Virus record (IMG/VR): IMGVR_UViG_3300038549_000019
Location: 1 to 55,216 of that record
Direction: 5' to 3' (one strand)
DNA length: 55,216 nt
Source: a virus
Lineage: Duplodnaviria > Caudoviricetes
Translations under genes and position numbers: made by a program
In this document: positions 3,322 through 22,060 of the stretch, piece after piece
How positions within the stretch are numbered: position 1 is the first letter of the stretch
Layout: each line of letters opens with the position of its first letter
Notes under the pieces: generated by a model
What the model was told of the DNA's origin: nothing
Seen by the model: the letters and a program-made list of their open reading frames with translations, nothing else
The model's database searches: none

Positions 3322-3323
3322 TT

Positions 3324-6539: not shown

Positions 6540-8654
6540 TCACTCCCCATTAAGGGCCGGGGGATAGCCCATATTGCCTAGCGCGTCCGGTTCATCGGCT
6601 GGACGGGTAGCCGTAGTATTCACCGCCTCCTCCAGGACTCGGGCCATCCTGACCGCAGCTTCACCGGTCTTGATGTCCAGCTGGGATAGTGTTTCTGCTG
6701 TTTTTGCCCTGGTCAGTTCGGTCTCTGCGACCGTTTTAACCGCATCCGTTTGGGCCTTAATTGCCTTGGCTTGTGCTTCGGCAGCCGCTGCCTTGAGGTA
6801 TTCGGCCTGGGGGTCAGGCTGTTGAGCATTCAATGCCGCCTGCATGGCTTCCAGGTCCGCTTCAGTCGGCTTGAGAGCACCGAGTTTGACCAGCTTCTGC
6901 CTGAAGTATTCCCTGACATCCGTGATGCCTTCGCCTTCGATGTTCATCAGGACCATCGCCTGCAAAATCTGCTGTGTCTCTGGGTCCGTCACCACCGGGA
7001 GTAACGCAGTCAGGGATTTGACTGTGGCATCCCGCCTGCTCTGGCTTGTTGGGCCCACTTCCACAGAGACATCCATGTTGGCGGTTGATAAATCGTTCTC
7101 CAGCACAACCTTGCCGGTCTTGTCTAGCACTTTCCGGCCAATTGTTACCGGGAACGCCTTGCCCGATGCATCGAACCCCTTCATCCTGCGCTCTTCATCA
7201 CCAGGGCTATAAATCTCCTGGGCAATCGAGAGCCAAACCTCGCCACATCGCCGGACGGCCTTGGCCATGTTGGACATATAAATGAAGGACTGCATGTCCA
7301 GGCGCGTTTGGATTAGCTCAACAGCCTTGCCGGAGATATTGCTGACTAGATTATCGCCGTTTTGAGCACCACCCAGCAAGTCCTTGAGATCTTGCTCGGT
7401 CAGCTGCAACAAGGCCCCCAGGGCCGGTGGAACCTGTGGGGGCTGAGTTGATCCGACTGGGCCACTGACAACAGACTGGCCACTCGCATCTGTGACCGGG
7501 TTAATCAGCAGGTAGGGGTAATTATTGACGTTATCATCCGCCCACATGACCTGATGCCCTGAAACCTGCTCAGGGGTAAAGATTGGTTTCTGGACAGGGG
7601 ATAAAGCAGAAATCTCACCAAGGCGGGAAATCTGCATGTTTTTCAGCCGCTGACTGTCCTTTGCTGTGCGGACATGCCCCTGCATTCGCTCCACGCCGTC
7701 GATTACCCATCTCTTACCAAATACAGGGATGATGGGGATGTGCTTACCAGCGATAACCCCGCAGTCCTCAAGCACCTTCCCACCTGACATGAGATACTTG
7801 TGGACTCTGCGCATCTTAATCTTTCGGCGCTTGATCTCTTCGGACCCAGTTGAGTCCAGTTCCCTCAGCAATGCACCATCATCGTCCTCAAGATCATCCA
7901 AGGTATGGGATTGCTCCTCCCCTGTAATGAGCCTGTAGGTTACTAGCGTATCGCTCTGCTCCTCAACAACGTAGTATTCGGCAATGTACACCGTGTCCGG
8001 AGTTGACCAGTCAAACATTGACGCATCAATAGGCTTTTCCCAGGAGGTTGGATCATCACCCCACTCTGCGAGGTAATCCTCCCTATCCTGAGGGACCAGT
8101 ACGAAACAATATTTGGCGTCTGCCTTGTCCTGGCGTCTTGCGGTAGGGTCGAAAAACACACATGAATCGGCGTCAAAAATCGGCTCGAACCGCACACGTT
8201 GGCGGTCGTCCTCGGGATCCAGTTCATTTTCATAGCAGGCCCGGACTCGCCACGCCCCAAATCCGCCCCCCACGGCTTCCTCAAATGCATTATCGTAGGC
8301 CTCATCAGCGGCGCTATCCTGCTCATCTGCTCGATACAACGCATCGCATGTATCCGCCAATGAGTCCTTCTCACTGCCGTCCTTGGGGACAAAATCAACA
8401 CTGATACGGTTGTTCCGGTATTCATTGATGATGCGAATGATGTTGAGGTGAACTTTATTAACCTCAAACATTGGGCGGTTCTTGAACTGCTCTCCAAGTG
8501 CACCTTCCCACTGGGCACCCGCGATAGAGTAAAACCGCCTATCCTCAAGGCAAAGCTTGCGCTCATCCTGGCAGGCATCTATGGTCAGGTCAAACCGGCG
8601 CAGAGCCTCAGTGTGGACCCTGCGGAGGCGTTCCTCTGTGCTCATTCGCCCCAT
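6540..8654 (-). CDS. Portal protein, P22 gp1 family
   Basis: 704 aa; GAQWEG, FEVNKV, GGFGAWRV, SGKAV, long helical C-terminal region. Confidence 0.9.
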   Translation of the reverse strand: MGRMSTEERLRRVHTEALRRFDLTIDACQDERKLCLEDRRFYSIAGAQWEGALGEQFKNRPMFEVNKVHLNIIRIINEYRNNRISVDFVPKDGSEKDSLADTCDALYRADEQDSAADEAYDNAFEEAVGGGFGAWRVRACYENELDPEDDRQRVRFEPIFDADSCVFFDPTARRQDKADAKYCFVLVPQDREDYLAEWGDDPTSWEKPIDASMFDWSTPDTVYIAEYYVVEEQSDTLVTYRLITGEEQSHTLDDLEDDDGALLRELDSTGSEEIKRRKIKMRRVHKYLMSGGKVLEDCGVIAGKHIPIIPVFGKRWVIDGVERMQGHVRTAKDSQRLKNMQISRLGEISALSPVQKPIFTPEQVSGHQVMWADDNVNNYPYLLINPVTDASGQSVVSGPVGSTQPPQVPPALGALLQLTEQDLKDLLGGAQNGDNLVSNISGKAVELIQTRLDMQSFIYMSNMAKAVRRCGEVWLSIAQEIYSPGDEERRMKGFDASGKAFPVTIGRKVLDKTGKVVLENDLSTANMDVSVEVGPTSQSRRDATVKSLTALLPVVTDPETQQILQAMVLMNIEGEGITDVREYFRQKLVKLGALKPTEADLEAMQAALNAQQPDPQAEYLKAAAAEAQAKAIKAQTDAVKTVAETELTRAKTAETLSQLDIKTGEAAVRMARVLEEAVNTTATRPADEPDALGNMGYPPALNGE

Positions 8655-8676
8655 AGTACCCCCATATGATTATAGG

Positions 8677-10005
8677 TTATCTCCACCTGCTAGCAACAGG
8701 CAATGGTATAAATTCCTGTTTGGCTGGTTTGGGATTAACGATGCCGCCGAATAGCTCTGTCAATACCCATATCCAGGCGTCGGCCCTATTAGGTGATTGT
8801 GTCCCAGTGTATCCTATGGTTGACATCGCGGTAAGCTCGTCCTCAAGTTCTCGGAACTCTCCAGCGTGGCGTATTTTGCCTTGCTCATACAGCGGGGCAA
8901 ACGGTTCCGCTCGAACGGCCTTCCCGCGTGTTGCGGTAACTGCCCGGTATGGCGTCCTGGGCCTAGCCGTCTGAATGACTTGTTGGACCATGGCCCCGCC
9001 GTAGTTGGTCTCACCAACCACCACATCCGCCCTATGGCGATCATACGCGGTCGCTACAACCCGGCTCCACGTAGAGGGCCCGGCCTTGACTGTGCAGTCC
9101 TCAAGCAGGTATGCGTTTCCGTCCGTCCCTAGGCCGCCAACAACGATACCGATGGCATCGTGCTCCGATCCGTCCCCGTCCCCCGCCCCTGATGGGTCAA
9201 CACCGATCACAACCCGCACTAGGTCAGGAAGTGGTTTATCGAGCCAACGCCACTTATCGATATCCTCATCATGGAATAGCGCGTTGGGGGTCGCATCGGC
9301 AAACTCGCCAGCCAGAAACCGTTTTTGCAGACGCGGGCTCAATCCCTTGAGGGTCTCCAGGTAGGCTCCATCGATGTTATCTCTGTTGTCATCCGGGTTA
9401 ATTTTGAACCATGCATACTCTTCTGGGTCTCGCACCGGGAATTTTGTTTCAGGATCCCGTTTTTCAATGAACATGCGATACGTCCAGTGGTTTTTGGAGG
9501 GCGGGTTCTCGTCATAATACATGCGTGGCTTGAGCGTGGTTGGCTCACATCCCTCCATCCGTTGGTCCACTAGCTGCGCCAGACGCGTTACTGCGATATC
9601 TCGGGACCCCTTGGGTATCTGTGACGCCTCATTGAGATAGATGGTGGCGAATTCCATCCCTAGGATCTTCTCGGTGCGCTCTTTATCATCGAGCCCTCCG
9701 AACCATATTTGTGAACCATTCTCAAAGTCTGCGTGCCAGTCTGTTTTGTCCAACTTGTATTTAACACCTTGGAAGCATAGCCGCATCACCTTCGGGAAGG
9801 TGTCCAACACAACCGATGCCTTCACGGCATTAAACCTGTATCGCAGGATAGCGTGACGGCTGTTCGGGGCTTTGAGCGCCCGCATACATACGGCTCTCAC
9901 CAATAGGAAGGTCTTGCCACTGCGGCTTCCACCCACCAGCATAATATGCGTTGCGGGCCCGGCCAGAACCCGCATTGCCTCCTGCTGTTTTTCGGTGAGC
10001 TTCAC
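8677..10005 (-). CDS. terL: Terminase large subunit
   Basis: Walker A GGSRSGKT, Walker B IYLNEA, nuclease GVDPS and PNRADA. Confidence 0.93.
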   Translation of the reverse strand: MKLTEKQQEAMRVLAGPATHIMLVGGSRSGKTFLLVRAVCMRALKAPNSRHAILRYRFNAVKASVVLDTFPKVMRLCFQGVKYKLDKTDWHADFENGSQIWFGGLDDKERTEKILGMEFATIYLNEASQIPKGSRDIAVTRLAQLVDQRMEGCEPTTLKPRMYYDENPPSKNHWTYRMFIEKRDPETKFPVRDPEEYAWFKINPDDNRDNIDGAYLETLKGLSPRLQKRFLAGEFADATPNALFHDEDIDKWRWLDKPLPDLVRVVIGVDPSGAGDGDGSEHDAIGIVVGGLGTDGNAYLLEDCTVKAGPSTWSRVVATAYDRHRADVVVGETNYGGAMVQQVIQTARPRTPYRAVTATRGKAVRAEPFAPLYEQGKIRHAGEFRELEDELTAMSTIGYTGTQSPNRADAWIWVLTELFGGIVNPKPAKQEFIPLPVASRWR

Positions 10006-10331
10006 AGCTCTTGGTCCTCTTTTGTGGCTTTAATCACAACTGGCCCGCCGCCGTCTCCAACGTGCTCGGTGCGCTGAAGCTTGGGGATGTGGTATTCAAT
10101 GACGTCCATCATGCACCGCCACGCCCTTTCGGCTCCCTGCTCCTCTGCGATTTGGTCCAGCCAATCCTGCAATCGCGGGATGTTCCCTTCAACAAGGGCA
10201 GCTATTGCTTCTCTGGCGTTTTGCGTTACCTTATTAGGTATCCCAGCTCGTGACCCTCCACCGCGTCTTTCTCCTGGCTTAGATCCACGGGACGGCACTT
10301 TTTTACGCTCTCCCTGCCGTTTATCGTCCAT
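10002..10331 (-). CDS. terS: Terminase small subunit
   Basis: 109 aa directly upstream of terL; G.PNK and PKLQRTEHVGDGGGP motifs. Confidence 0.75.
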   Translation of the reverse strand: MDDKRQGERKKVPSRGSKPGERRGGGSRAGIPNKVTQNAREAIAALVEGNIPRLQDWLDQIAEEQGAERAWRCMMDVIEYHIPKLQRTEHVGDGGGPVVIKATKEDQEL

Positions 10332-10373
10332 TTTGGCCCCTCCTTCACCACTAACTCACGTTTTTCTTCATTC

Positions 10374-10517
10374 CTAGCACAACTGGCCACGCGGAGGCCA
10401 GAGATCACGGCTAGGCTCTTTGTCCCTACCGGGCAGTTTCGGTGCCTCGGCAGTCGGTGTTTCCTTCACCTCTTCCGGGATGGGTTGCTGGTCCTTCTTT
10501 TCTTCCTCAGGGTTCAT
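10374..10517 (-). CDS. Small acidic hypothetical protein (47 aa, not in ORF track)
   Basis: Hand translation MNPEEEKKDQQ...; RBS GAGGAG; frame kept in copy 2. Confidence 0.4.
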   Translation of the reverse strand: MNPEEEKKDQQPIPEEVKETPTAEAPKLPGRDKEPSRDLWPPRGQLC

Positions 10518-10519
10518 GT

Positions 10520-10741
10520 CTACTCCTCATGTTTAAACACCTTCGCTTCCAGGTGCTTCACCCTAGTATCGATCGTTTCGACTTTCTGTTCAAGGACGGC
10601 GGAGCGGGTTTGCCCGGCATAGACCGCCGTGCGCATCTCTCTAACCTCATAAGCCGCCCACCCCAGCACGGCCCCCAACAACCCCTTGGCAATCCATTCC
10701 CAAGTCACCGATCCGCCGCGTTGTCTTTGCCCACCAACCAT
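10520..10741 (-). CDS. Small membrane / coiled-coil protein, possibly lysis-related
   Basis: Hydrophobic segment WIAKGLLGAVLGWAAY; TAATG coupling to upstream gene. Confidence 0.5.
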   Translation of the reverse strand: MVGGQRQRGGSVTWEWIAKGLLGAVLGWAAYEVREMRTAVYAGQTRSAVLEQKVETIDTRVKHLEAKVFKHEE

Positions 10742-11301
10742 TAACGCCTCCCTGCGCAAAAACCGAGGGCCAGCCCCCCGGCAACCCCTTGCAATCGCCC
10801 CCTCCAAAGGGCACCGCGATTTGCTGCCTTTTGCGCCTCCAGCGCTAATTCTAGGCTGACAACCTGTCTCCTACGGGCGTCAGCCTCATCCCTGTATGCA
10901 TCTCCCCTGATAGTCAGGGCCTCGATTACCTTGTCGCGGTCCTGAATGGCCACGTCTTGTGCTGCAATTAGCGCATCCTTAGCAACGTCCAGACTGGCCA
11001 GATCTCCAGCGGGTAGAGGCTCGGGACTCGGTAGGGTGACACCAGGTGTAGCGGGGCGTAGTTTGGCCACCACGGCGCGTAGCCGTGCAACCTCCAGGTC
11101 AGCCCTCCCCACAGCGGCCTTTGCCTCCTGTGCAGCCGTCTCCTGTGCCAGTGCCCTGGACCGCTCCGCATCAGCCCTCCTAGCCTCGTTTTTTGCGGTT
11201 TGTTCGTGTTGGGTTGCGACTGCCTGTATTTTTTTGCCGTGATACGCAAATGCCCCTGCCACAATGGCAAGGGCAATTACCGCCACGATGGGCCATCTCA
11301 T
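10741..11301 (-). CDS. Rz-like inner-membrane spanin
   Basis: N-terminal TM helix plus long Ala-rich coiled coil, downstream of endolysin and holin. Confidence 0.6.
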   Translation of the reverse strand: MRWPIVAVIALAIVAGAFAYHGKKIQAVATQHEQTAKNEARRADAERSRALAQETAAQEAKAAVGRADLEVARLRAVVAKLRPATPGVTLPSPEPLPAGDLASLDVAKDALIAAQDVAIQDRDKVIEALTIRGDAYRDEADARRRQVVSLELALEAQKAANRGALWRGRLQGVAGGLALGFCAGRR

Positions 11302-12353
11302 GCTGTCACCTCGAATAGTGCAGGCTGGTAGCCGCTCGTATGGTTCTGACAATGTGGGCTAAACCAAATGCGCTCTCTCCCCGCATTTGTTCGCCCAGCG
11401 CCGGTCCCCTGTGTGCCATACCCGCCTTGCGCTTTCCACGCAACCTTTACCCACCCGTGATCCTCTAATGTGTGGTGCCCTTCGCCTTCGTAGCCACACA
11501 ACGCTATTCGCAGGTTGGTTTTTCCCCCATTTGCCACACACCACTCTGTGACGTCGCTTGCTACAGTAGTTGACTCCTGCCTATAAACCATTTCCCTGTC
11601 ATCGACGCCGTAAGGTGGATCAAGAAAAACAGCTGTCAACCCCATTGATTCTGTTTGGCTACGGCCTAGGACCCTGGACCAGTCCCCACAGCATACCCGG
11701 ACATCCCGCAGCCGTTCTGCCAATTCTTTAAATACATCCAGAATGTCCCCATCCCTATCTGCGTCTTGCTTCTTGTTTATGCCAAGCCCAGGACCGCCCA
11801 AATATGGTATTTTCCGGTTAATACCCATCCCAGAATTGCCGATGTGCGGCATTTGCCGGTTAATACCAGCCTCTACACTCCCTATTTGTTTGGTTAACGC
11901 TAATACACCCTCATCATCTGGGACGGCAACCCACGGCCCCTTGCCACTGGCAAAGCCGGATCCAATCCAGCAGCACATGCCATAGACCCAATACCCTGCC
12001 ATCCGAGCATCGTAGTAGTCAGGGTCAGCCATCATCCGGGATTGATGCCTTTGTAGTCTGGTAACAATCCAAATATGCCTAGCGTGTAAATCAGCCTCGT
12101 TTACAGGGCACGATGCCCATCTAGCTACCTCGTCCGGGGCGTCCCGCGTCGATCGCCAGAAATTGGACACCAGTGCATCCAGATCGTTAATCGTTTCTGT
12201 TTGCGGCGGATGGGGGCGGGCCAATAGTACAGCCCCGGACCCAAAAAAGGGCTCCACATAGTTTTGACAATCGCCTAGCCGATCCCAAACCAGACTAGCG
12301 ACCGGCGATTTCCCGCCGAACCATGGGAATGGTGCCTTGAGACCATCAGTCAT
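11298..12353 (-). CDS. DNA adenine methyltransferase (Dam/D12-like)
   Basis: PFPWFGGKS, YVEPFFGSGAV, INDLD and catalytic DPPY; true start probably MTDGLK. Confidence 0.88.
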   Translation of the reverse strand: MTDGLKAPFPWFGGKSPVASLVWDRLGDCQNYVEPFFGSGAVLLARPHPPQTETINDLDALVSNFWRSTRDAPDEVARWASCPVNEADLHARHIWIVTRLQRHQSRMMADPDYYDARMAGYWVYGMCCWIGSGFASGKGPWVAVPDDEGVLALTKQIGSVEAGINRQMPHIGNSGMGINRKIPYLGGPGLGINKKQDADRDGDILDVFKELAERLRDVRVCCGDWSRVLGRSQTESMGLTAVFLDPPYGVDDREMVYRQESTTVASDVTEWCVANGGKTNLRIALCGYEGEGHHTLEDHGWVKVAWKAQGGYGTQGTGAGRTNAGRERIWFSPHCQNHTSGYQPALFEVTA

Positions 12354-12603
12354 TCTTTGCCCCGCTGTCTGGCTTGCGGTAGGCAACCCCGGCCAACCCG
12401 GCAACAATACCACCAAGACCCAGCAGGGCGGATACTGCCCCAGTGCCAAGATCGCCATGCCGGTAGGCCCACCATGCGCAGGCGATTGCAAGCCCACCGA
12501 ACCCAAGACACAATGCAACCGATGCTAAGGCGACTACGTGGCGCTTGGTTGAGAGCGTCCCCCCGGGCCCGCTCAACACCTCCTTGATCCACTCCTTAAT
12601 CAC
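12346..12603 (-). CDS. Putative holin
   Basis: Two TM segments, adjacent to endolysin. Confidence 0.6.
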   Translation of the reverse strand: MIKEWIKEVLSGPGGTLSTKRHVVALASVALCLGFGGLAIACAWWAYRHGDLGTGAVSALLGLGGIVAGLAGVAYRKPDSGAKND

Positions 12604-12669
12604 TGATGCACCGGCCAATATGGCCAATCGTACGGGTTATCATCGTATGGATCGCCGGGGTCATCTTTC

Positions 12670-13125
12670 CTACCCATGGTGGACCTCTTCGTAATGTGGT
12701 GTCCCTGTTTTGTCGTAGACCGCGATATAGGCCTTATGCCTAGGCTCCTTGCCGATCCGTGGTGCCTGAACGTGGATCCAGATTGTATCGCCTTTGATCT
12801 CAAGAATGAGCTTATCAAAGACGGGCCCACGATTGATAATTTCATTGAATGCACCCAGGCAGTCCATACCCTTGGGCACAAAATCACAGGCGCGGCCCTC
12901 AAGATGGGCGCTTTGTGGGTGCCCCCCCACCTTGCGGTTGACAGCCTTAGACCTGTAGGCAGAGTTGACCACTAGGGGGACACCCAGCAGCCCCCGGATT
13001 GGCTCAAGAATCGAGTCAGCAAGGATGACCAGATTAGTCCCGGCCTCCATATCTGGGTCATTGCCCAATCCAGTGCTGGTCTTGGTCAACTCGTCCAGTG
13101 TGAAATGGGGTGATAGGTGCTGCAT
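12670..13125 (-). CDS. Endolysin, peptidase M15 family
   Basis: LSPHFTLDEL, SAYRS..VN..VGG, SAHLEGRACD, WIHV zinc-peptidase motifs. Confidence 0.88.
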   Translation of the reverse strand: MQHLSPHFTLDELTKTSTGLGNDPDMEAGTNLVILADSILEPIRGLLGVPLVVNSAYRSKAVNRKVGGHPQSAHLEGRACDFVPKGMDCLGAFNEIINRGPVFDKLILEIKGDTIWIHVQAPRIGKEPRHKAYIAVYDKTGTPHYEEVHHG

Positions 13126-13156
13126 TGTGTCCTCACTCTCCAGGATATACTTAGAT

Positions 13157-13561
13157 TTAACATTCGCAAGTGTGGTCTATCCACACGATGCCGAGATTTT
13201 GTGCAGCCCACACTTCAACTTGTGTTACATACTGCTGAAACTCTGATACAGTCAGTGATGACGTGCTTTGTGCGGTTGTTCCGCCGCACGGGAGGTCTAC
13301 AACGCCCAAAAATCGGCGCTTCAGGAACTCGTGCCAGATTTCGGCTGTGTATTGCCGTCCCTCGATCCAGGCATCCTCCTCTAGCTGATGCAGTAATCTC
13401 CAATAATATTTGTTTTGCGCCCTTGACCGTGTGGATTTCTCCGGCTTGATCTCGATTGCAAGTGGATTGCCTTCTAGCGCATATTTTTCCCATGCATCCT
13501 TGCAGTAGGATACCAACGCTTCCAGGTTCCGCTCGGATCGTAGGTAGTATGTCCTCATCAT
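13157..13561 (-). CDS. ninB: NinB/Orf family recombination mediator
   Basis: RSRAQNKYYW and STSSLTVSEFQQYVTQVEVWAA motifs. Confidence 0.8.
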   Translation of the reverse strand: MMRTYYLRSERNLEALVSYCKDAWEKYALEGNPLAIEIKPEKSTRSRAQNKYYWRLLHQLEEDAWIEGRQYTAEIWHEFLKRRFLGVVDLPCGGTTAQSTSSLTVSEFQQYVTQVEVWAAQNLGIVWIDHTCEC

Positions 13562-13761
13562 GGCTCTAGCCCGTTGTCCCGGAATAGCGCGATTAGGGCC
13601 CTAGCCTCGTCCCAGGTAACGTATCCTGTCCCCCGGCAAACCCGCTTGGCACTGCGCTCCGGGATGCCGAGTCGGGCCATCTCTCGATACAGATTGCCAG
13701 CCCCGCGCAAAACACACGCCAAAGCCAGCCACGGCTCAGGCAGATTAGTTGGTCTCCCCAT
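13558..13761 (-). CDS. Small HTH-like protein
   Basis: RBS GGAGG; similar to the 15801-16010 product. Confidence 0.55.
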   Translation of the reverse strand: MGRPTNLPEPWLALACVLRGAGNLYREMARLGIPERSAKRVCRGTGYVTWDEARALIALFRDNGLEP

Positions 13762-13787
13762 GTCCCCTCCTGTCATCATTATAGGCC

Positions 13788-13823
13788 ACTGTCTACCCAA
13801 TGCAACCCCATCCGTAGTTTTTT
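13788..13823 (-). promoter_or_regulatory. Sigma70-like promoter
   Basis: A-tract, TTGCAT-N16-TATAAT upstream of 13761 start. Confidence 0.6.
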
Positions 13824-13901
13824 GGGTGGGTCTATTGCTGATTGCGAACCGCTAGTATTGTTTTCATTGGCGTTGTGGCTGGTCTTAGTACGTGTTCCCC
13901 A

Positions 13902-13953
13902 GAATTGGGCGTACCGTCATCCCATGGACGGTACGTCCAATTCAAAGTTAGGC
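13902..13953 (+). other. Left boundary site of cassette array: hairpin plus GTTAGGC, no R'' box
   Basis: gaattgggcgtaccgtc/gacggtacgtccaattc stem followed by GTTAGGC at 13947-13953. Confidence 0.6.
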
Positions 13954-13955
13954 GC

Positions 13956-14129
13956 TCAACGCAGCACGCACCAAAGCGCCCACCCAAGGCCGAAGCCAAT
14001 TCCCACTCGAAGCAGTTCCTTCCTTGCGAGGTTCTTTCCATCCTGAAACCCCCGCACGTAGGCCTGTTCCTCTGGTGTTTTGGCCAGATGGGCCTGTAAG
14101 CCGTCAAGCAGTCGTTCAAAATCAGGCAT
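13956..14129 (-). CDS. Cassette A gene 2, 57 aa with C-terminal hydrophobic segment (not in ORF track)
   Basis: Hand translation MPDFERLLDG...WALWCVLR; stop 2 bp from GTTAGGC. Confidence 0.6.
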   Translation of the reverse strand: MPDFERLLDGLQAHLAKTPEEQAYVRGFQDGKNLARKELLRVGIGFGLGWALWCVLR

Positions 14130-14289
14130 TCGCCACCTTCTTTCTCGTCACCTCAAAGATTTCGGTTACCCCGTCCTGGGCGTAGACCGCTGCGTAATGC
14201 CGCGCCTCGCGCAGGGCGTCTTCCCTGGGGCCAACGGCGCTGGCAACTGGTTCCCCGTCACACCTCACTTCAAATTCAACTTCTTCCAT
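14122..14289 (-). CDS. Cassette A gene 1, hypothetical
   Basis: MEEVEFEVRC; RBS AGGAG. Confidence 0.6.
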   Translation of the reverse strand: MEEVEFEVRCDGEPVASAVGPREDALREARHYAAVYAQDGVTEIFEVTRKKVANA

Positions 14290-14319
14290 GGTTTCTCCTG
14301 TGGTTCCAACCAACAACGC

Positions 14320-14403
14320 GCCTAACCCTCACATCAACAACGCTCACTTCGTTCGCTCGGACCCAGCCCTTGCGGGCTGGTCCGGTTATGTCGGGCGTTA
14401 GGC
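14320..14403 (+). repeat. attC site 1 (84 bp, branched)
   Basis: GCCTAAC-N5-CATCAAC...GTTATG-N6-GTTAGGC. Confidence 0.88.
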
Positions 14404-14691
14404 AGCTAGACGTGCCTGCACGCAGAACCTGAAAGATGTCGCTCGCCACAGCCGTCGATACCACCCTGGCCACTGCGCTACAGCAGTCCCTAGGGCTGGC
14501 AGAAAGCTCCCGTAAAAACCCATGCGGGCTGGTCCACTGTATTCGGATGGTGCCCAAATACCCCAAGAAGGGCCTTGCCAATTCCCGCCAAGGTGGCCTA
14601 GATGGATGGCCGTGTAGCCCACTTGGATGCGGAGCAGAGTCCCTTTGTTTTGGCCCGAATGGGTGTTCCTGTAGATGGTGCAGATTTTCAC
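14398..14691 (-). CDS. Cassette B hypothetical protein
   Basis: GTG start with AGGAG RBS; TAA lies inside R' of attC1. Confidence 0.5.
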   Translation of the reverse strand: MKICTIYRNTHSGQNKGTLLRIQVGYTAIHLGHLGGNWQGPSWGIWAPSEYSGPARMGFYGSFLPALGTAVAQWPGWYRRLWRATSFRFCVQARLAA

Positions 14692-14720
14692 GCTTTTTCT
14701 CCTTTCGTTTCGTTTACGCG

Positions 14721-14800
14721 GCCTAACCGGTCATTCAACACCGGCCTTCGGCCTCGGACCCACGGCTCTGCCGTGGGCCGGTTAATTCGGTTCGTTAGAC
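14721..14800 (+). repeat. attC site 2 (80 bp, branched)
   Basis: GCCTAAC-N5-ATTCAAC...GTTAAT-N7-GTTAGAC. Confidence 0.88.
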
Positions 14801-15403
14801 CGCCTCGGCCCATGCTTGGGCAGAACGGGCGATCCCCAGCAGCAGATCCCGAAACTCGGGCGGCGTCCGCTGCCTGTGTTTACTGCACATGTTCGCAATC
14901 ACCCCGCAACGTCGGGCGCTTTCGTACCCGCGTTCCGCTAGGCGTTTCTCTGGCAACCGCTGTTCTGCTGGTCCCCAGATCAGTTCCGGGGGCTTCGGAC
15001 CCACCGCCAACAGCCAGGTCTTTTTCCGGGCCTTGTGCCCGTAGTGCCCCTGCTCGACTTCGCAGGTCCATTCGGCGTAGCCGATCCGCAGCCATCCGGC
15101 CTTGGGCGGCTTGGGAATCCCGAAGGCATCCCAGGCTTTCGAGTGCGCGGGGTGCTCCAGCACTCCCCCGAACTGGCGCAGGCTGGCCAGCGCGGCGGCA
15201 AAGCATCCGTCATCATCGCCCGTCTGGTGGACCTTCTTCGTCATGCTGCCTTCCGAGAAACGCCCCCACCTCTGGCAGGGCGGGTGCGCCACAACGGGGT
15301 GCGGACCCTCGTAGCGCCTGGCGTCCCGCCCGATGTCCCACGGGTCCACCTCGGGCAACCCGTAGTAGCAGCCATTTTTCTCGACATACAGCGCCGCGAT
15401 CAC
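14795..15403 (-). CDS. Cassette C: short C5-cytosine methyltransferase-like protein
   Basis: VVAHPPCQ (motif IV-like), VLEHP (VI-like), RKKTWL (VIII-like), RTPPEF. Confidence 0.6.
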   Translation of the reverse strand: MIAALYVEKNGCYYGLPEVDPWDIGRDARRYEGPHPVVAHPPCQRWGRFSEGSMTKKVHQTGDDDGCFAAALASLRQFGGVLEHPAHSKAWDAFGIPKPPKAGWLRIGYAEWTCEVEQGHYGHKARKKTWLLAVGPKPPELIWGPAEQRLPEKRLAERGYESARRCGVIANMCSKHRQRTPPEFRDLLLGIARSAQAWAEAV

Positions 15404-15425
15404 TTTTCCTCCTCTCCGGTCGTCG

Positions 15426-15507
15426 GTCTAACCATTCCATCAACAACGCCCCTTCGGGGCTCGGACCCAGCCCTTGCGGGCTGGTCCGGTTATGTCGGTC
15501 GTTAGGC
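15426..15507 (+). repeat. attC site 3 (82 bp, branched)
   Basis: GTCTAAC-N5-CATCAAC...GTTATG-N6-GTTAGGC; inner stem same as attC1. Confidence 0.88.
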
Positions 15508-15699
15508 GACACCATTCTGTTTCAGCCATCGATACAGTTCGCCCTTGATGTGGTCCGTCAGCTTCGTCCCAAAAGGACAGGTCTTTGCCCACTCATTCAC
15601 CAAGCCTCCGCTGTGGCAAATGAACTCTTCCAGCTTGTTGATTCTGGCTTGTAGATGCGCCTCTCTTACTGTGCATACCTCGTGATTGCGGTCCTTCAT
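15502..15699 (-). CDS. Cassette D hypothetical protein
   Basis: MKDRNHE with GGAGGA RBS; TAA inside R' of attC3. Confidence 0.55.
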   Translation of the reverse strand: MKDRNHEVCTVREAHLQARINKLEEFICHSGGLVNEWAKTCPFGTKLTDHIKGELYRWLKQNGVA

Positions 15700-15747
15700 G
15701 ATTCGATTCCTCCACACTTTTTATTCTGTGTATGATTCGCGCCAGTC

Positions 15748-15806
15748 GCCTAACCGGGCGCTCAACCGGACCCCTGGCGGGGCCGGTTAGCTCGGAAGCG
15801 TTAGGT
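15748..15806 (+). repeat. attC site 4 (59 bp)
   Basis: GCCTAAC-N5-GCTCAACC-GGAC...GGTTAGC-N8-GTTAGGT. Confidence 0.92.
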
Positions 15807-16010
15807 GGCTTCGGGCGGCTCCACGCCAGCCTCCCGGAATACCTGCTCAATCAGGCGCCTGGCCGGGCCTCTGGGCTGGCGCGTCCCGTGAGCCCACTGG
15901 TGGACGGTGCGGGGGGTAGTCCCCAGAGCCTCAGCTACCTGGGCCACACCCCCCAGGATCTCCGCCAGGCGGTCCCAGGGGGCGGGGAGTGTTGTGGGGC
16001 GCGGCATCAA
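15801..16010 (-). CDS. Cassette E gene 2: Cro/XRE-like HTH protein
   Basis: VAQVAEALGTTPRTVHQWAHGTRQP helix-turn-helix. Confidence 0.75.
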   Translation of the reverse strand: MMPRPTTLPAPWDRLAEILGGVAQVAEALGTTPRTVHQWAHGTRQPRGPARRLIEQVFREAGVEPPEAT

Positions 16011-16279
16011 ATCCCCAGCAAAATGCGAGCGGCTCCGAGAGCCTTTTCCTCAGAATCGCCGGGGACAAAACCATCCTCGGCGGAGGGGCAGCACTCGCGC
16101 AGGGCGATCACGAAGTTTTCCGCTGCTTCTGTGTAGGCCCCGAAATCGTCAAGGCTGGAGATAGCTTCGAGGGCCTTCTTGATCTTCCACTCGAAAACTC
16201 GGGTGTCGTCGAATTTCCCAGACAAAACGACGATTCGTGCTCGGATCGCGTTCAGGATTTCAATCTTGACATGGCTCAT
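16007..16279 (-). CDS. Cassette E gene 1, hypothetical
   Basis: MSHVKIEIL with AAGGAG RBS; stop overlaps HTH start. Confidence 0.6.
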   Translation of the reverse strand: MSHVKIEILNAIRARIVVLSGKFDDTRVFEWKIKKALEAISSLDDFGAYTEAAENFVIALRECCPSAEDGFVPGDSEEKALGAARILLGI

Positions 16280-16313
16280 CTCGGCTCCTTGTGTCCTGGG
16301 CTCCTTGCCCGAC
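16274..16313 (-). repeat. 40-bp leader/RBS element, identical inverted copy at 23506-23545
   Basis: gtcgggcaaggagcccaggacacaaggagccgagatgagc. Confidence 0.9.
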
Positions 16314-16377
16314 AACACAATATCGGCTCAATGTTCCGAATGCGCAAGGGGGGGCAAAAGATTTTTTTAGGCCCGCC

Positions 16378-16436
16378 ACCTAACCACTCGCTTAACCGGA
16401 CCCCTGTCGGGGCCGGTTAGCTCGGAACCGTTAGGC
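16378..16436 (+). repeat. attC site 5 (59 bp)
   Basis: ACCTAAC-N5-GCTTAACC-GGAC...GGTTAGC-N8-GTTAGGC. Confidence 0.92.
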
Positions 16437-16682
16437 CTCTGGCTCTTGGTCCCATCCCGAGTCCTCGCGCATCCTCTTCCCGCACCATCGGCAACAGGTC
16501 CAGTGGTGCCCCAGCCCATTCCCCTCCCACAGGCCGTTATCCTCGTGGGGACACTGCTCGATCAGTGCCTTTTCGGCAGGGCGGTAGATCGTGTCGTCGT
16601 ACTCCCGCATTCTGCGGCTCGCCTCGCGGGTGCGCTCCCACAGCAAATTCTTCAGCGCGGCTTTTATCTCGGGTCCGTTCAT
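16431..16682 (-). CDS. Cassette F hypothetical protein with Cys/His motif
   Basis: MNGPEIK, AGGAGG RBS; CPH...CRWCG; TAA inside R' of attC5. Confidence 0.6.
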   Translation of the reverse strand: MNGPEIKAALKNLLWERTREASRRMREYDDTIYRPAEKALIEQCPHEDNGLWEGNGLGHHWTCCRWCGKRMREDSGWDQEPEA

Positions 16683-16714
16683 CTTTCCTCCTATGCCCGC
16701 CCCGTCTCTCATCG

Positions 16715-16773
16715 GCCTAACCCGTCGCTCAACCGGACCCCTGGCGGGGCCGGTTAGCTCGGGAGCGTTAGGC
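16715..16773 (+). repeat. attC site 6 (59 bp)
   Basis: GCCTAAC-N5-GCTCAACC-GGAC...GGTTAGC-N8-GTTAGGC. Confidence 0.92.
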
Positions 16774-16774
16774 G

Positions 16775-17113
16775 CTACTTGAACAGTGCTTCAAAGATTT
16801 TGCCGCGAGAGTAGCTGGATTCCAGGCGCTTCTTCACTTCGTCCGTCATGCCCCTAGCGAGTTCTTCTGTGATCTGGTTTGCGGTGATGATGGCAAGTGA
16901 AACAAGCCCTTCTTTGGATTCGACAAGTTGAGCTTTAATCACCGGCACAATTTCAGTAGCCATGAACGCGGTAACTTCATCCTGGATTAGCTTTGAAACA
17001 ATAGGGCTCATCTCCCAGTGGGCTTGTCGCGTAGCTTCGGCGGTCAATCCAGCAATAATGGAAGGTTTAGCCTCGTCCAAAATTGAAGCAATTTGTTCTT
17101 GCGAAAGCTGCAT
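16775..17113 (-). CDS. Cassette G hypothetical helical protein
   Basis: MQLSQEQ with GGGAG RBS; TAG 1 bp from attC6. Confidence 0.65.
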   Translation of the reverse strand: MQLSQEQIASILDEAKPSIIAGLTAEATRQAHWEMSPIVSKLIQDEVTAFMATEIVPVIKAQLVESKEGLVSLAIITANQITEELARGMTDEVKKRLESSYSRGKIFEALFK

Positions 17114-17127
17114 TGCGTTTCTCCCGC

Positions 17128-17227
17128 GCCTAACTCGGCGCTCAACCGGACCCAACCGCCACGGGCATCCGGCTTTATTCGTGTTTGGACCAATGGCGGT
17201 TGGTCCGGTTAGCTTGGGCCGTTAGGC
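17128..17227 (+). repeat. attC site 7 (100 bp)
   Basis: GCCTAAC-N5-GCTCAACC-GGACCCAACCGCCA...TGGCGGTTGGTCC-GGTTAGC-N7-GTTAGGC. Confidence 0.9.
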
Positions 17228-17228
17228 C

Positions 17229-17492
17229 TCAACGCCAGTTAACATGCATGCCTTCGGTTTCTCTGTGGTCCCACCGGTGCCCACACATCTCACACACCTT
17301 TTCAGACAGAGCAATATACCAAAATGCATCACCTTTGGTCACTAGTCGGTGCTGTGGTCGCAATAAAATGTAAGTGTTGAAACTCTCGCAATCTGGACAA
17401 CGCAATGTGTTTAACAAACCGCCTAACCCATCGTTCAACCCGGACGTTACCTCCATGGACTGCTGTTCTCCTTCGTTATTCGTGATTTCCAT
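17229..17492 (-). CDS. Cassette H zinc-ribbon-like protein, starting inside attC8
   Basis: CPDC...CEMCGH; GGAGGGAG RBS and ATG lie in the attC8 loop. Confidence 0.55.
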   Translation of the reverse strand: MEITNNEGEQQSMEVTSGLNDGLGGLLNTLRCPDCESFNTYILLRPQHRLVTKGDAFWYIALSEKVCEMCGHRWDHRETEGMHVNWR

Positions 17493-17545
17493 ACTCCCTC
17501 CAAAGTTTCGGCGTCGGTAACGCCGGTTAAGTCCAGTCGCTAGGC
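17421..17545 (+). repeat. attC site 8 (125 bp, non-canonical R' GCTAGGC)
   Basis: GCCTAAC-N5-GTTCAACC-CGGACGTTACC...GGTAACGCC-GGTTAAG-N7-GCTAGGC. Confidence 0.8.
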
Positions 17546-17836
17546 GCGATTCAAAGCGTTGCGCGCTATTTCGTGGGCATTTACGATATCCTTCGAATAT
17601 TGCACGGCCACCAATTCTTCCCGGTATCGTTCAGACCTGTCCTGCGTATCGTTCAACTGTTCGATAATTTCTAATAGTTGATCTTCTACTTGCCGTCCCC
17701 TTGTCGCCTCTATTCGGCTGAGCAGCCATTCCACTCTCTCGTCTAGCCCGGCGCGCTTCCACTCCGTGTCATCAAATAGGCCGTCATGCAGCATCCACTT
17801 GATTCGGTTGAGTTGGTCCTCTGTGTTGCCGTCCAT
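17540..17836 (-). CDS. Hypothetical protein
   Basis: MDGNTEDQ downstream of promoter; TAG lies in degenerate R' of attC8. Confidence 0.6.
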   Translation of the reverse strand: MDGNTEDQLNRIKWMLHDGLFDDTEWKRAGLDERVEWLLSRIEATRGRQVEDQLLEIIEQLNDTQDRSERYREELVAVQYSKDIVNAHEIARNALNRA

Positions 17837-17854
17837 CTCTCTCACCTCGATACC

Positions 17855-17909
17855 AGTATGGGCCCTGGGTGGCCCGTGCGCAAGGGGGGGGACGTGCAAA
17901 CTTTTTTTG
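17855..17909 (-). promoter_or_regulatory. Sigma70-like promoter pointing into the cassette array
   Basis: A-tract, C-tract, TTGCGC-N17-CATACT. Confidence 0.6.
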
Positions 17910-17912
17910 TTA

Positions 17913-18449
17913 TTAAGTGTTGTTACCACTGCCATAGTTGTCATCCCACCCGCCCGAATATGTTTCTTTATCCTGGGCGCACTCGATGCATTTATTTTTG
18001 ATTTCGCGCTGCAATCTATTATTAAGACCAACTTCGTACGATAGAGCGCTCATGAGCCCCTCGTTTTGTTTTTCTAGCCAGTCAATATGCCCATTGGCTA
18101 TTTCCAGCTCTTTTTTTAATTTGTTTACAATATTTTGCTGCATACAGCCTCCAATCAGTGTTTGCACCTGTAACCATAGCTCCGCCTCTGTCCCGTGCGC
18201 CGCCTCCCAAGTTTTCGGCCCAGCGTGATAGGCGACTCCCCATCCCCCTTGCCGGTGGTGGGCCGGGCACAGCGGGATCGAGTGGAGGTGGCAGGACCGT
18301 TTGCCCGCTCCAATATGCCGCCCTGTCTCAGGGTGGCGTTTGAGGTGGTGCACCTCCGCAGGCGTCCCAGGATACCCATTATTCAGGCAAACTATGCACC
18401 CAAGCGATACAATAGCGTCAAGGTATTCTTTCTCCTCATTTGTAGCCAC
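17913..18449 (-). CDS. Ref/DUF968-like HNH-type nuclease with in-frame C-terminal extension
   Basis: GCIVC..PAEVHH..IPLCPAHHR..HAG..WEAAHGTEAEL. Confidence 0.7.
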   Translation of the reverse strand: MATNEEKEYLDAIVSLGCIVCLNNGYPGTPAEVHHLKRHPETGRHIGAGKRSCHLHSIPLCPAHHRQGGWGVAYHAGPKTWEAAHGTEAELWLQVQTLIGGCMQQNIVNKLKKELEIANGHIDWLEKQNEGLMSALSYEVGLNNRLQREIKNKCIECAQDKETYSGGWDDNYGSGNNT

Positions 18450-18876
18450 TGTCTCGCCTCGCCTTCATTCGTGCCTTTGCGCGTCTGTTTGCTGCGATAC
18501 ATTTTTTGCATCGTCTATATCCAGGCTCTGGATCATGCGCTCCACAAGTGCTACATTTGCCCTCCTGTCGCCTGCGTTCTCGGTATTTTTTTGTTGCCTC
18601 GTCGTGGTACTCCTGGCAGTACCCACATTTTTGCCGCCCTGGCATGGCCTCCGCTTTACCGCATGATATACAAATTCCCAGCGCTGCCAAGGCCTTCCTG
18701 CGCACTAATACACGGGGCGGGGTCCCCTTCCTGTTGTCTCGGCACTTTTGGCACGATCCGAGCCCTCCGTCCGCAGGCGCACCACAATAATAGCAAAGGC
18801 CAGCCGCTCGTCTTTCCCAATAAATTGTCTTTTTTTGCTTCCTGTTTTTCCGTTGCTCCAGGATTTCCGCCCTCAC
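18436..18876 (-). CDS. Basic protein with three CxxC...CxxC repeats
   Basis: GLCYYCG..CQKC, GICISCG..CGYC, GKCSTCG..CKKC. Confidence 0.65.
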   Translation of the reverse strand: MRAEILEQRKNRKQKKTIYWERRAAGLCYYCGAPADGGLGSCQKCRDNRKGTPPRVLVRRKALAALGICISCGKAEAMPGRQKCGYCQEYHDEATKKYRERRRQEGKCSTCGAHDPEPGYRRCKKCIAANRRAKARMKARRDSGYK

Positions 18877-20225
18877 AATTGCCTCCCCTGCCGTGGAGCT
18901 TGTTGACTGGTATATGACGTTTCCCTAGTAACAACCTCATATCGTTGATATTGTCCGTTGAACGCCATGGGAATTTGCCCCAGGGGCCCCGCACGGTGCT
19001 TTGCGATGAGCAGTTCGGCTGTATTATCAACCTCTCCCGTATCGGGCTTGTTTTGCCGGTGCAAAAACAACACACAATCAGCATCCTGCTCGATACAACC
19101 AGACCCACGCAAATCCGCTAATCTAGGTGCCGTGCTGGATCTTCCTTCAACCTCCCGGTTCAGCTGACTCAGGAGTAATACTGGGACGTTTTTGTCTTTG
19201 GCACAGATTTTGAGAGCCCTGGTGATGTCCCCCAACGCTTGATCTTCCCTGCGTTTTGCGTCCGGTTGTGATATGAGTTGGAGATAATCTACTACCACCA
19301 GCGCAGGCAATTCACCGGCCTGCTGGATAGCCCTGTCAACCTGTGATACAATTTGTGATACATTGATAGCAGCCCTGTCATTTATTAATAGCTGTTTCTT
19401 CCGCAGGTCAGCCACTGCCCTGTGTACAAGCCCACGCTGGTAATCCCTAGCCGTGCCGGTGGTTAGCACGCTCATCGGGACAGACGCTGTATTGGCCACT
19501 AGCCTCGTCATGATCTCCTCGTCTGGCATCTCCAGGGAAAAAACCAGTACTGGCCCTGTGGCACATGCAGCCAATGCCCAGTTCAGAGCTAGGGCCGTCT
19601 TGCCTATCCCGGGCCTAGCGGCCAGCACATACAGCCTACCAGGGCACAACCCCCCCAGCACTGCGTCTACCCGAGCCATACCCGTTGGAGCACCCCCCGT
19701 CCAGGCATGGCCGTCTAACCGGCCTAGGACGCGTTCTAAGGCCTCCGAACACTGTTTCAGGTGGTTACCCTGCCCGCCAACCGCCAGACGCGCCAGAGAG
19801 GCCCCTAGGGCCTCTGCAAGGGCATCCGGTGTATCCTGGGCAAATGCGTCCCGTACGAGCTGGGTCCCCAGCCGGATCAAATCCCGGCGTTTGCGGTCCC
19901 GCTGGAGGATCGCTACCAGCGCCCCAGGCCGCGCCACGTCTAGCCCGGATAGGATCTCGGTCAGCCCGGACCAGTCGCCAACACGCCCGAGATCACCGTG
20001 GCTCCGCAGCTGGTCGGCTAGGGCGGCGAGGCTCAGCTCCTGCCCGGCGGCCTGGAGGGCGGCGGCAGCCCGGTAGACCGCCCGGTGCTGCGGCACCAAA
20101 AAATCCTCCGGGACCAGCACGGGCAGCCATTCCGCCGCATCCGCGTCTGCCCCTGGTGCGCACAGGGTGGTCAGCAGGTCGCGTTCCACGCGGGGGTCAT
20201 GGGGGGGGGCCTGATTTGGGGTCAC
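18873..20225 (-). CDS. dnaB: Replicative DNA helicase
   Basis: AARPGIGKT, FSLEM, VVDYLQL, LSQLNR, DLRGSGCIEQDAD, KHRAGP. Confidence 0.95.
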   Translation of the reverse strand: MTPNQAPPHDPRVERDLLTTLCAPGADADAAEWLPVLVPEDFLVPQHRAVYRAAAALQAAGQELSLAALADQLRSHGDLGRVGDWSGLTEILSGLDVARPGALVAILQRDRKRRDLIRLGTQLVRDAFAQDTPDALAEALGASLARLAVGGQGNHLKQCSEALERVLGRLDGHAWTGGAPTGMARVDAVLGGLCPGRLYVLAARPGIGKTALALNWALAACATGPVLVFSLEMPDEEIMTRLVANTASVPMSVLTTGTARDYQRGLVHRAVADLRKKQLLINDRAAINVSQIVSQVDRAIQQAGELPALVVVDYLQLISQPDAKRREDQALGDITRALKICAKDKNVPVLLLSQLNREVEGRSSTAPRLADLRGSGCIEQDADCVLFLHRQNKPDTGEVDNTAELLIAKHRAGPLGQIPMAFNGQYQRYEVVTRETSYTSQQAPRQGRQL

Positions 20226-21121
20226 ACTGTCACCTCCTCGAGTGGTAGCGGTTGTGGGTTATTGGTGCGCCTGTAAATTTCAGCTTTTACAGCCCGGGCC
20301 CACGGTGGTGTTTTGCCATTTTTCCCAGGCCCGAACCAGAACTGGATTGCATTTGGGTAGTCGCCTGGGTCCTGGAGCCAATCCAGCGCGGCAGCCTCCA
20401 GCAGGTCCAGGGTAACCTCCGGGTGGGCATCGAGCAAATCCTCGACTGCGCCAACGGCGTCGACGAGATCGTGGCGGATTGGCCTGCTGTCCCTGGACGT
20501 GGGCCACTGGGCTAGCAGGCGTTGCACTAGCCCCACCACCTCGGGCCGGTAGCCCTGGATACGCTCTGCCTGCCGTTTGCGCTTGGGTTTTGGCTCCGGC
20601 GCGGCAGCCGTTCCCCCCTGGGGGGTAGGGGGGGGTACTTCTGTTACTGATACTGTTACTGATACTGGTTCCGAAAGGGTTTCAGAAGGGTTCGCCAAGG
20701 GTTCCGAAAGGGTTTCATCTTTGGGCACCTCAGCCCCGAAGTGATGACCGCAGACCCTTAGAAAATCTAGCTTCCACTGGCATAGTTCAGGTATCTGCTC
20801 CACGATCTTCCGGGCGCACTTGCACTGATTGGGATTTTCGAGGGGGTTCCACTCCAGATGCTTGCGAACCCACACCCATTTAGAGGTTCCGCAACGGTTT
20901 GCAAAACCCTTCTGGAACAGTTCCGCAAACCCTTCTGAAACCCTTTCTGAACCCCATCCGAGGTCTTCCGCGACATAGGCATCCGGTAGCCTGAACACGC
21001 CTACAAGGGTCCCGTGTTGGCAGCTCAGGAGATAACACGCCAGGATGCGCCCCGTGTCGCTAAGGGTGGATGTGGTCTCACTGGACCAGAACGAGCTGTA
21101 GACCTTTCCGTAGTCGCGCAT
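20222..21121 (-). CDS. Phage replication initiator (lambda O-analogous)
   Basis: MRDYGKV..FW N-terminus; upstream of and coupled to dnaB; internal repeats. Confidence 0.7.
   Translation of the reverse strand: MRDYGKVYSSFWSSETTSTLSDTGRILACYLLSCQHGTLVGVFRLPDAYVAEDLGWGSERVSEGFAELFQKGFANRCGTSKWVWVRKHLEWNPLENPNQCKCARKIVEQIPELCQWKLDFLRVCGHHFGAEVPKDETLSEPLANPSETLSEPVSVTVSVTEVPPPTPQGGTAAAPEPKPKRKRQAERIQGYRPEVVGLVQRLLAQWPTSRDSRPIRHDLVDAVGAVEDLLDAHPEVTLDLLEAAALDWLQDPGDYPNAIQFWFGPGKNGKTPPWARAVKAEIYRRTNNPQPLPLEEVTV
20641..20953. repeat. Iteron-like repeats, candidate replication origin
   Basis: ggttccgaaagggtttca at 20667 and 20700; inverted copy at 20927-20953; ctgttactgata x2. Confidence 0.65.
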
Positions 21122-21964: not shown

Positions 21965-22018
21965 CCCTATGGTAGGATTTTGCTACGGTTGCGCAAGGGG
22001 GGGGCCAAGGTTTTTTTG
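21965..22018 (-). promoter_or_regulatory. Leftward early promoter with 25-bp operator-like box
   Basis: A-tract, C-tract, TTGCGC-N16-TACCAT. Confidence 0.7.
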
Positions 22019-22060
22019 TCCCCACCTCGTCATGTACTATATAGATGCGCATCTCTCCAC

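Follow-up and report, generated by a model that had tools for sequence, protein, structure and literature searches.

The strand selectivity of the integron integrase IntI at attC sites is usually explained as keeping cassette genes aligned with the cassette promoter (Pc). Arrays of attC sites without IntI are already known from temperate and virulent phages, where their small open reading frames (ORFs) often encode DNA methyltransferases and where, in the phages studied by Qi et al., the sites are recombined by IntI1 in trans (PMC9892861, in the parts covered here). We analyzed an array of this type in the phage record IMGVR_UViG_3300038549_000019 (Duplodnaviria; Caudoviricetes), which we treat in its entire length of 55,216 nt and refer to as the window. 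The array resembles those of Qi et al. in its content and in being IntI-less and, by analogy only, in the recombination of its sites by IntI1; it differs in that its genes lie on the attC sites' bottom strand, a layout that is the rule in 110 of 112 callable viral cassettes and to which, among the arrays of Qi et al., PH101 conforms and TJE1 does not. While IntI-less phage arrays were known (PMC9892861, as above), the reversed layout of gene and attC as a rule in phage arrays appears to be new.

Sites were identified with the regular expression RYYYAAC...GTTRRRY, and eight were found on the plus strand between 14320 and 17545, i.e. three of 59 nt, three of 80-84 nt with an extra small hairpin, one of 100 nt and one degenerate site. 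The R'' (RYYYAAC) and R' (GTTRRRY) boxes conform to the consensus in 7/8 sites, the eighth having the R' box GCTAGGC. A bulged C is present in the L'' box of all eight sites, a bulged A lies 6 bp further in in the 59-nt and 100-nt sites, and the spacers are asymmetric, with 5 nt on the left and 6-8 nt on the right, as in the aadA1 attC. Rfam contains no matching family and gave no match in the window at gathering thresholds. Strand was scored with a covariance model, R1, that was built in the top-strand sense from eight class 1 attC sites of equal length; a MAFFT alignment of 14 class 1 sites of mixed length had placed the right arms incorrectly, and the equal-length set was used instead. From left to right, the array contains the following sites:

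13868-13954, plus: left end of the array, a hairpin (fold -16.0 kcal/mol, z -2.7; no R1 score) followed by a lone R'-type box GTTAGGC (13948-13954) without an R'' partner
14320-14403, plus: attC of 84 nt, branched, with L'' CAT[C]AAC pairing with L' GTTATG (bottom-strand fold z -4.3; R1 8.6 bits on plus)
14721-14800, plus: attC of 80 nt, branched, R' GTTAGAC (fold z -3.5; R1 7.0 bits on plus)
15426-15507, plus: attC of 82 nt, branched (from regular expression and fold; 89% identity to 14322-14403)
15748-15806, plus: attC of 59 nt with classical geometry (R1 36.7 bits on plus, 8.6 on minus)
16378-16436, plus: attC of 59 nt (R1 34.3 bits on plus, 11.0 on minus)
16715-16773, plus: attC of 59 nt, with a T and a G bulging from the 3' arm of its folded minus strand (R1 40.7 bits on plus, 11.3 on minus; z -4.6)
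17128-17227, plus: attC of 100 nt with a long variable loop (z -5.4; partial R1 match of 10.4 bits on plus)
17421-17545, plus: degenerate last attC, R' GCTAGGC (fold unstable, z +0.26; contains the first ~24 codons of ORF 17229-17492)

Insertion of a first cassette at a non-attC site would produce such a left end, with a hairpin and the lone GTTAGGC at 13948-13954. The site at 17421-17545 looks like a fossil, its GTT having mutated to GCT, its fold being unstable and its loop containing the start and the ribosome-binding site of an ORF. The three branched sites share an extra hairpin of 15-19 nt between L'' and a conserved CTCGGACCC stem, and a third version of this design is present in a variant contig of the probable source run.

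To read the polarity of the sites, we compared them with the aadA1 attC of plasmid R100, which in the direction of the gene, away from intI1, reads TAA-TGTCTAAC-AATTC-GTT[C]AAGCCG[A]CGCCGC-TTCG-...GCTTAAC-TCAAGC-GTTAGAT. The plus strand of the window reads GCCTAAC-CGGGC-GCT[C]AACCGG[A]CCCC-TGGC-GGGGCCGGTTAGC-TCGGAAGC-GTTAGGT, and it agrees with the aadA1 gene strand in its bulges, in their 6-bp distance and in the asymmetry of the spacers. Moreover, 17 additional class 1 attC sites have the 5-nt left spacer and, where their L boxes were paired visually, carry the extra base on the gene strand's 5' arm. In controls, R1 scored the sites it was trained on with 72-89 bits on the right strand and 17-25 bits on the wrong strand, and recovered 3/10 untrained class 1 sites (cmlA1, aadA5 and blaSIM-1), in all three cases on the gene strand alone. 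The scores of the three 59-nt window sites were 34.3-40.7 bits on plus vs 8.6-11.3 bits on minus, with E values of 1e-8 to 1e-10. When folded as DNA, the R box of the minus strands is paired, their spacer is unpaired and a T and a G bulge from the 3' arm; the minus strand folds better in 6/8 sites with a mean gain of 0.7 kcal/mol; bulges of this type and such a fold advantage have been described for attC bottom strands (Nivina et al. 2016, PMC5027507, the part covered here). Finally, 10 of the bacterial loci with the attC motif of the window contain an IntI1 homologue (37-69% identity), and in 10/10 of these the top strand assigned by R1 or the motif has intI upstream and in divergent orientation. 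By these sequence features, plus is the top strand of the sites and minus the bottom strand, predicted to be the one that folds and recombines. This agrees with the original prediction, made from the window's sequence, that the unpaired bases make plus the top strand, for which it had proposed assignment by a covariance model: the aadA1 geometry and, at three sites, the R1 scores (34-41 vs 9-11 bits) both give this strand.

Coding potential was scored by codon log-odds, and 12 large genes for structure and replication that lie outside the array served as the training set. Together with family matches, this model gives the following genes, starting from the left:

13956-14316, minus: two small cassette ORFs, 13956-14129 and 14122-14316 (codon scores 11.1 and 28.0; no family match)
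14398-14691, minus: doubtful ORF with a good Shine-Dalgarno sequence (codon score 0.4, alternative on plus -14.2; no family match)
14795-15403, minus: cassette gene of the phage family phrog_12600 of unknown function (E 1e-62)
15502-15717, minus: cassette ORF, stop is the TAA of R' (codon score 16.1)
15801-16377, minus: two-gene cassette with a Cro/YdaS-like helix-turn-helix protein (15801-16010), an ORF (16007-16318) and a promoter-like module (16318-16377) (family matches; repeat families D4, D6 and I1)
16431-16712, minus: cassette ORF, stop is the TAA of R' (codon score 20.2)
16775-17155, minus: cassette ORF, stop 2 nt outside R' (codon score 39.7)
17229-17492, minus: cassette ORF with a weak zinc-ribbon signal (weak Pfam matches), start inside the degenerate last attC (codon score 7.1)
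17540-18031, minus: flanking gene, TAG stop within the mutated R' box GCTAGGC (17539-17545) (codon score 31.0)

The codon model backs 9/10 cassette ORFs and the flanking gene, all on the minus strand (scores 7.1-39.7), and scores stay at or below 5 for all plus-strand ORFs within the array. Ten cassette ORFs had been predicted on the minus strand; nine hold by codon score, while ORF 14398-14691 (0.4) does not. Canonical promoterless cassettes have the ORF on the top strand, with its own attC downstream; in the window, all supported ORFs lie on the bottom strand. As had been predicted to the exact position, the stop codon is the TTA (TAA in the gene) of R' for the ORFs at 14398, 14795, 15502, 15801 and 16431, lies 1-2 nt outside R' for those at 13956, 16775 and 17229, and falls within GCTAGGC for the flanking gene. 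A stop in R' is the mirror image of the usual stop of canonical cassettes in R'': among edge-ending ORFs, 23 inverted ones in viral loci stop in the TAA of R' and 24 canonical ones in bacterial loci stop in the TAA of R''. Stops within the R box are thus no peculiarity of the window array and mirror canonical cassettes.

The promoter-like module of the two-gene cassette reads, in gene sense, TTGCGC, a 17-nt spacer and GATATT or CATACT, with a C run and an A run before them, and recurs at 17854-17890 and 21967-22026. In the same cassette, the 47-nt leader at 16274-16320 is 96% identical to 23499-23545. Because module and leader recur in phage regulatory regions, the cassette content is phage-adapted. 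For ORF 14795-15403, clusters in the Atlas are 80-91% viral and PF00145 first appears at rank 30, so that a relationship to C5 DNA methylases is a weak lead; homologues of this ORF are present as cassettes in two viral loci, L001 and L010. A PADLOC defence search of 11 window proteins gave no match, an NCBIfam search of window proteins added nothing useful, and no window cassette fits a toxin-antitoxin or defence model.

To determine how general the reversed layout is, as the original prediction of a distinct class of reverse cassettes had suggested by proposing a survey of phage and bacterial arrays, we processed two viral samples and a bacterial control with R1 and one simple ORF caller. Viral sample 1, drawn with the L'' motif of the window, gave 28 loci, of which three exact duplicates were dropped, and intervals were scored in 17. 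Viral sample 2, drawn independently with a different L'' motif, comprised 77 loci, with 150/155 matches used, duplicate intervals removed and 36 loci scored. The bacterial control comprised 73 loci of genome contigs searched with the window motif. Sample 1 contained 45 inverted and 0 canonical cassettes, with 14 giving no call, and sample 2 contained 65 inverted and 2 canonical cassettes, with 14 giving no call; thus, 110/112 callable viral cassettes in 53 loci are inverted, and 28 were uncallable. By contrast, the bacterial control contained 59 canonical and 15 inverted cassettes (15/74 callable), with 7 giving no call (Fisher test, sample 1 vs bacteria, p = 5e-20). A check independent of codon usage, in which, for every interval, the longest ORF per strand was searched against protein families, gave the same picture: PHROG families matched 19/50 inverted-strand vs 0/42 same-strand ORFs in sample 1, and 13/70 vs 1/57 in sample 2, while Pfam families in the bacterial loci matched 6/61 inverted-strand vs 29/76 same-strand ORFs. 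The six bacterial inverted-strand matches are two toxin-antitoxin genes, three insertion sequence transposases and one DNA methylase, the last in a prophage-like stretch of L075. Taken together, these observations show that inversion is the norm for phage contigs carrying this type of attC, but not for bacteria, and the predicted distinct class is supported.

Neighbouring phage genes in the viral loci, which are early, recombination and replication genes, share the direction of the cassette ORFs (81 ORFs with vs 17 against), and this co-orientation fits read-through from a phage operon. The viral cassettes frequently encode DNA methyltransferases, and also HNH nucleases, Gam, RNA ligase, RNase H and Holliday-junction resolvase. 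Among the bacterial loci, a contig of a Sulfuritalea metagenome-assembled genome (L075:4200-6910) contains inverted cassettes for a phage-type DNA methylase (phrog_67) and a phrog_5086 protein, and its array is probably a prophage array within that genome. A locus of Acidovorax lacteus (L106:8878-14159) has nine 60-nt aadA-like attC sites and three 185-nt intervals without an ORF; these intervals could be empty or non-coding cassettes.

Published phages allow the layout to be compared with experiment. In the Pseudoalteromonas phage H101, the published bottom strand of PH101_attC1 (PMC9892861, supplement table S3) matches the minus strand at 75919-75976, the local genes are all on minus, and four R1 matches on plus lie in the gaps between genes (L302:2420-4488, record positions 75919-77987); as read from its sequence, H101 has the reversed layout. 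Qi et al. (2023) reported that IntI1 recombines the PH101 sites, and their bottom strands more often than their top strands (PMC9892861, section 3.4). By analogy, this experiment on another phage supports that the gene-sense strand is the recombinogenic one, and the sites of the window would likewise be recombined by IntI through their folded bottom strand. In the sections of PMC9892861 covered, the TJE1 and PH101 arrays are termed typical and the gene strand is not compared with the attC strand, and the part of its supplement that was searched contains no orientation table. In the literature searched, we found no description of the reversed phage layout; the annotation file of PMC9892861 (Supplementary File S1), which was outside this search, might show it.

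Altogether, we favour the reading, with a probability of about 0.7, that the array is a true cluster of attC sites lacking an integrase (CALIN), made of attC-first cassettes that are read with the phage early operon and moved by host IntI. As in a CALIN, eight attC sites, all on plus, lie within 3.2 kb in a record without an integron integrase; the intI, attI and Pc of a complete integron were not found beside the array. Searches of the window record for the integron integrase (TIGR02249) and for any tyrosine recombinase (PF00589) gave no match, and tyrosine recombinases of the PF00589 type were also not found in two other complete phage records with arrays. Because the phage lacks a tyrosine recombinase, we infer that a host integron integrase moves the cassettes in trans; the likely host would be a betaproteobacterium whose integrons use the same type of attC. 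With the canonical crossover between the G and the TT of the GTT in R', the mobile unit would be TTRRRY, the antisense gene and the gene's own attC, i.e. in gene sense an attC, a ribosome-binding site, the gene and TAA, with the last codon and the stop built into the cassette end. The genes would be read as part of a leftward early/middle operon, one cassette having a putative phage-type promoter of its own. By geometry, phage cassettes would sit antisense to Pc at a host attI, and host cassettes that enter the phage array would be antisense to phage transcription; given antisense placement both ways, the phage and host pools would be functionally insulated. The phrog_12600 cassette is common to the otherwise unrelated loci L001 and L010 with 86-88% nucleotide identity, and between them the attC before the gene is 98% identical and the attC behind it 79%. 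This better conservation of the front attC supports an attC-first unit.

An array with host-type sites could also be a piece of a host integron or CALIN that was passively captured and by chance landed antisense, in which case the reversal would be meaningless. The attC type is indeed that of Burkholderiales and Rhodocyclales integrons, and inverted cassettes do occur in bacterial arrays, in 15/74 callable cases; chance capture from host arrays that are ~80% canonical, however, cannot yield 110/112 inverted viral cassettes. In addition, the cassette genes belong to phage families (methyltransferases, HNH nucleases, Gam, RNA ligase, phrog_12600), and one window cassette has a promoter module in common with the phage regulatory region; we therefore regard passive capture as improbable. 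That the recombinase is not IntI but another enzyme, perhaps Xer-like and from host or phage, which prefers the other strand and on whose terms the genes are not reversed, seems to us slightly less probable still. No IntI was found linked to any viral array, as this explanation would have it, but neither the window record nor the two other complete array-bearing phage records contain a tyrosine recombinase, every polarity feature matches IntI-type attC sites and those of IntI-bearing bacterial integrons, and IntI1 prefers the sense strand in H101 (in the part of PMC9892861 cited above).

The hairpins might instead act on RNA or transcription, as terminators, processing sites or stabilisers after stop codons, and no longer be recombination sites. 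In the mRNA sense a stop codon precedes each hairpin, which is equally the case in ordinary arrays, and attC sites are thought to hold weak terminators (PMC9892861, section 3.4). Yet DNA features that only IntI needs (R'' and R', GTT, two canonically spaced bulges and the spacer asymmetry) are kept in 7/8 sites, and an RNA hairpin has no need of bulges on one arm; moreover, the same cassettes are found in unrelated phage contigs, and H101 sites of the same layout are recombined by IntI1 (PMC9892861, as above). We consider this explanation unlikely, if a little less so than the two preceding ones.

Several observations weigh against the reading of a CALIN of attC-first cassettes as a general phage layout. 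R1 overlooked 7/10 untrained class 1 sites and is thus specific but insensitive, and in the window only 3/8 sites have a strong R1 score; the other five have weak plus-strand matches (6.9-10.4 bits), and their polarity is based on the directly read bulged C and the folds. The front attC travels with its gene in 6/8 pairs, a trend (6 to 2) that lacks significance. Two variant joints were found in contigs of the probable source run, 13955 to 16710 and 14743 to 15482 (with 39 other letters between), and neither is at the canonical crossover; with sides of 30 and 23 letters, they are weak. Both viral samples were drawn by two motifs of one proteobacterial attC family, and the cassettes of one array, like related phages, are not independent data points. 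Finally, the Tetrasphaera phage TJE1 is canonical, R1 finding three attC sites on its gene strand in agreement with the published bottom strands, and the two published sites of phage P12002L, placed by motif, point in opposite directions; R1 gave nothing significant on P12002L (best relevant match 9.5 bits, E 4.3). The reversed layout is not universal among phages.

As to why the cassettes are reversed, one possible explanation, which we consider clearly less than an even bet, is that, with the genes co-directional, reversal makes the bottom strand both lagging-strand template and non-template strand, an arrangement in which attC sites readily fold and are recombined. Two opposed clusters of GAAACCCTT-like repeats at 20675-20716 and 20903-20945, inside the gene for a DnaD-like initiator, resemble the iterons of a lambda-type origin. 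A leftward fork from 20675-20945 would run with transcription and would have the minus strand, i.e. the attC bottom strand, on the lagging template; only reversed cassettes would combine a bottom strand that is lagging-template and non-template with genes co-directional to replication and transcription. In Vibrio cholerae, inversion of the integron such that the bottom strands are on the lagging template raised excision from below 7e-5 to 3e-2 (PMC13108822, the part covered here). Against this explanation stands that the replication origin is placed from repeats alone. Two other causes were considered and rejected. Top-strand recombination flips the whole cassette with its attC and not the gene relative to its own site (PMC5027507, as above). 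Insertion bias does not fit the part of the work of Loot et al. covered, in which IntI inserted at genomic Escherichia coli sites without strand or replication bias (bioRxiv 10.1101/2022.09.11.507474); since genomic insertion is unbiased, a simple insertion bias does not explain the reversal.

On a broader proposal, phages of integron-bearing proteobacteria would maintain a private pool of attC-first cassettes, whose handedness keeps genes aligned with phage transcription and replication and has the recombinogenic strand as the lagging and non-template strand, which host IntI shuffles, and which is subject to mutual silencing; this is tentative, and we would sooner bet against it than on it. 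The cargo of such a pool would be methyltransferases, nucleases and many genes of unknown function. The SOS signal of induction or infection would also induce host IntI and lead to high-frequency shuffling of the array. Phage cassettes would be silent in host integrons, and host cassettes, many of which are anti-phage, would be silent in phages.

The window is the entire record and holds ~1.56 copies of one 35.3-kb phage genome. Bases 1-19906 recur at 35305-55216, with 96% identity over the first 12 kb (structural genes) and 100% from 12001 onward. The record is rated 100% complete by CheckV; it could be two strains assembled as one concatemer or a genuine tandem of two variants. The array is present in it a second time:

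49178-52855, plus: second array copy (100% identical, offset +35310)

PHROG matches identify a P22-like podovirus with lambdoid early genes: on the structural side the portal, scaffold, major head protein, head closure, ejection proteins and tail spike, and on the early side a DnaD-like loader, DnaB, Erf, an exonuclease, NinB, a Ref-like nuclease, an M15 endolysin and a Dam-type methylase. Within a long run of minus-strand genes, the array is bounded by the Ref-like nuclease (17913-18449) and NinB (13157-13561), in an accessory 'nin-like' stretch with replication genes on one side and NinB and the lysis genes on the other. Close relatives at the same locus, sought via the Ref-like nuclease, gave 18 pattern matches, none of which was confirmed, and blastn of the array against isolated phages found only a homologue of phrog_12600, in Pseudomonas phage Persinger, and a single match of 56 nt.

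In these phages, a large natural set of arrays apparently uses the same sites the opposite way round as a rule. This points to a second, phage-carried cassette pool, whose members would be misread or missed by annotation that assumes top-strand genes, and suggests mobility of phage accessory and anti-restriction genes in the form of integron cassettes. The arrays also offer a natural test of how the orientation of attC relative to replication and transcription sets the recombination rate. The question of cassette origins is touched, since the orientation of a gene to its own attC cannot be altered by recombination; the data say nothing on cassette creation itself. If the private-pool proposal is true, integron recombination would be used from both sides of the phage-host conflict.

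Compared with canonical arrays of class 1 and sedentary chromosomal integrons, the phage array has the same R''-L''...L'-R' sites, bottom-strand bulges and stops inside an R box, a single polarity per array and one or two ORFs per cassette; it differs in having no intI, attI or Pc, in carrying its genes on the bottom strand in units of attC then gene with the stop in R' instead of R'', and in that expression would come from phage promoters. With the inverted toxin-antitoxin cassettes of chromosomal integrons, which have their own promoter, it shares an ORF opposite to the attC top strand; however, inverted cassettes are a minority in bacteria (15/74), whereas in the phage every cassette is inverted and there is mostly no room for a promoter. 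Finally, IntI can also place cassettes at GWT sites outside integrons, as considered for SALINs (single attC sites lacking an integron integrase) and attG insertion, with possible expression from a resident promoter (Loot et al., bioRxiv 10.1101/2022.09.11.507474, the part covered here), and the lone GTTAGGC junction at 13948 resembles such an entry point; the cassettes considered there were canonical, in bacterial chromosomes and without orientation bias, while those of the phage are reversed.

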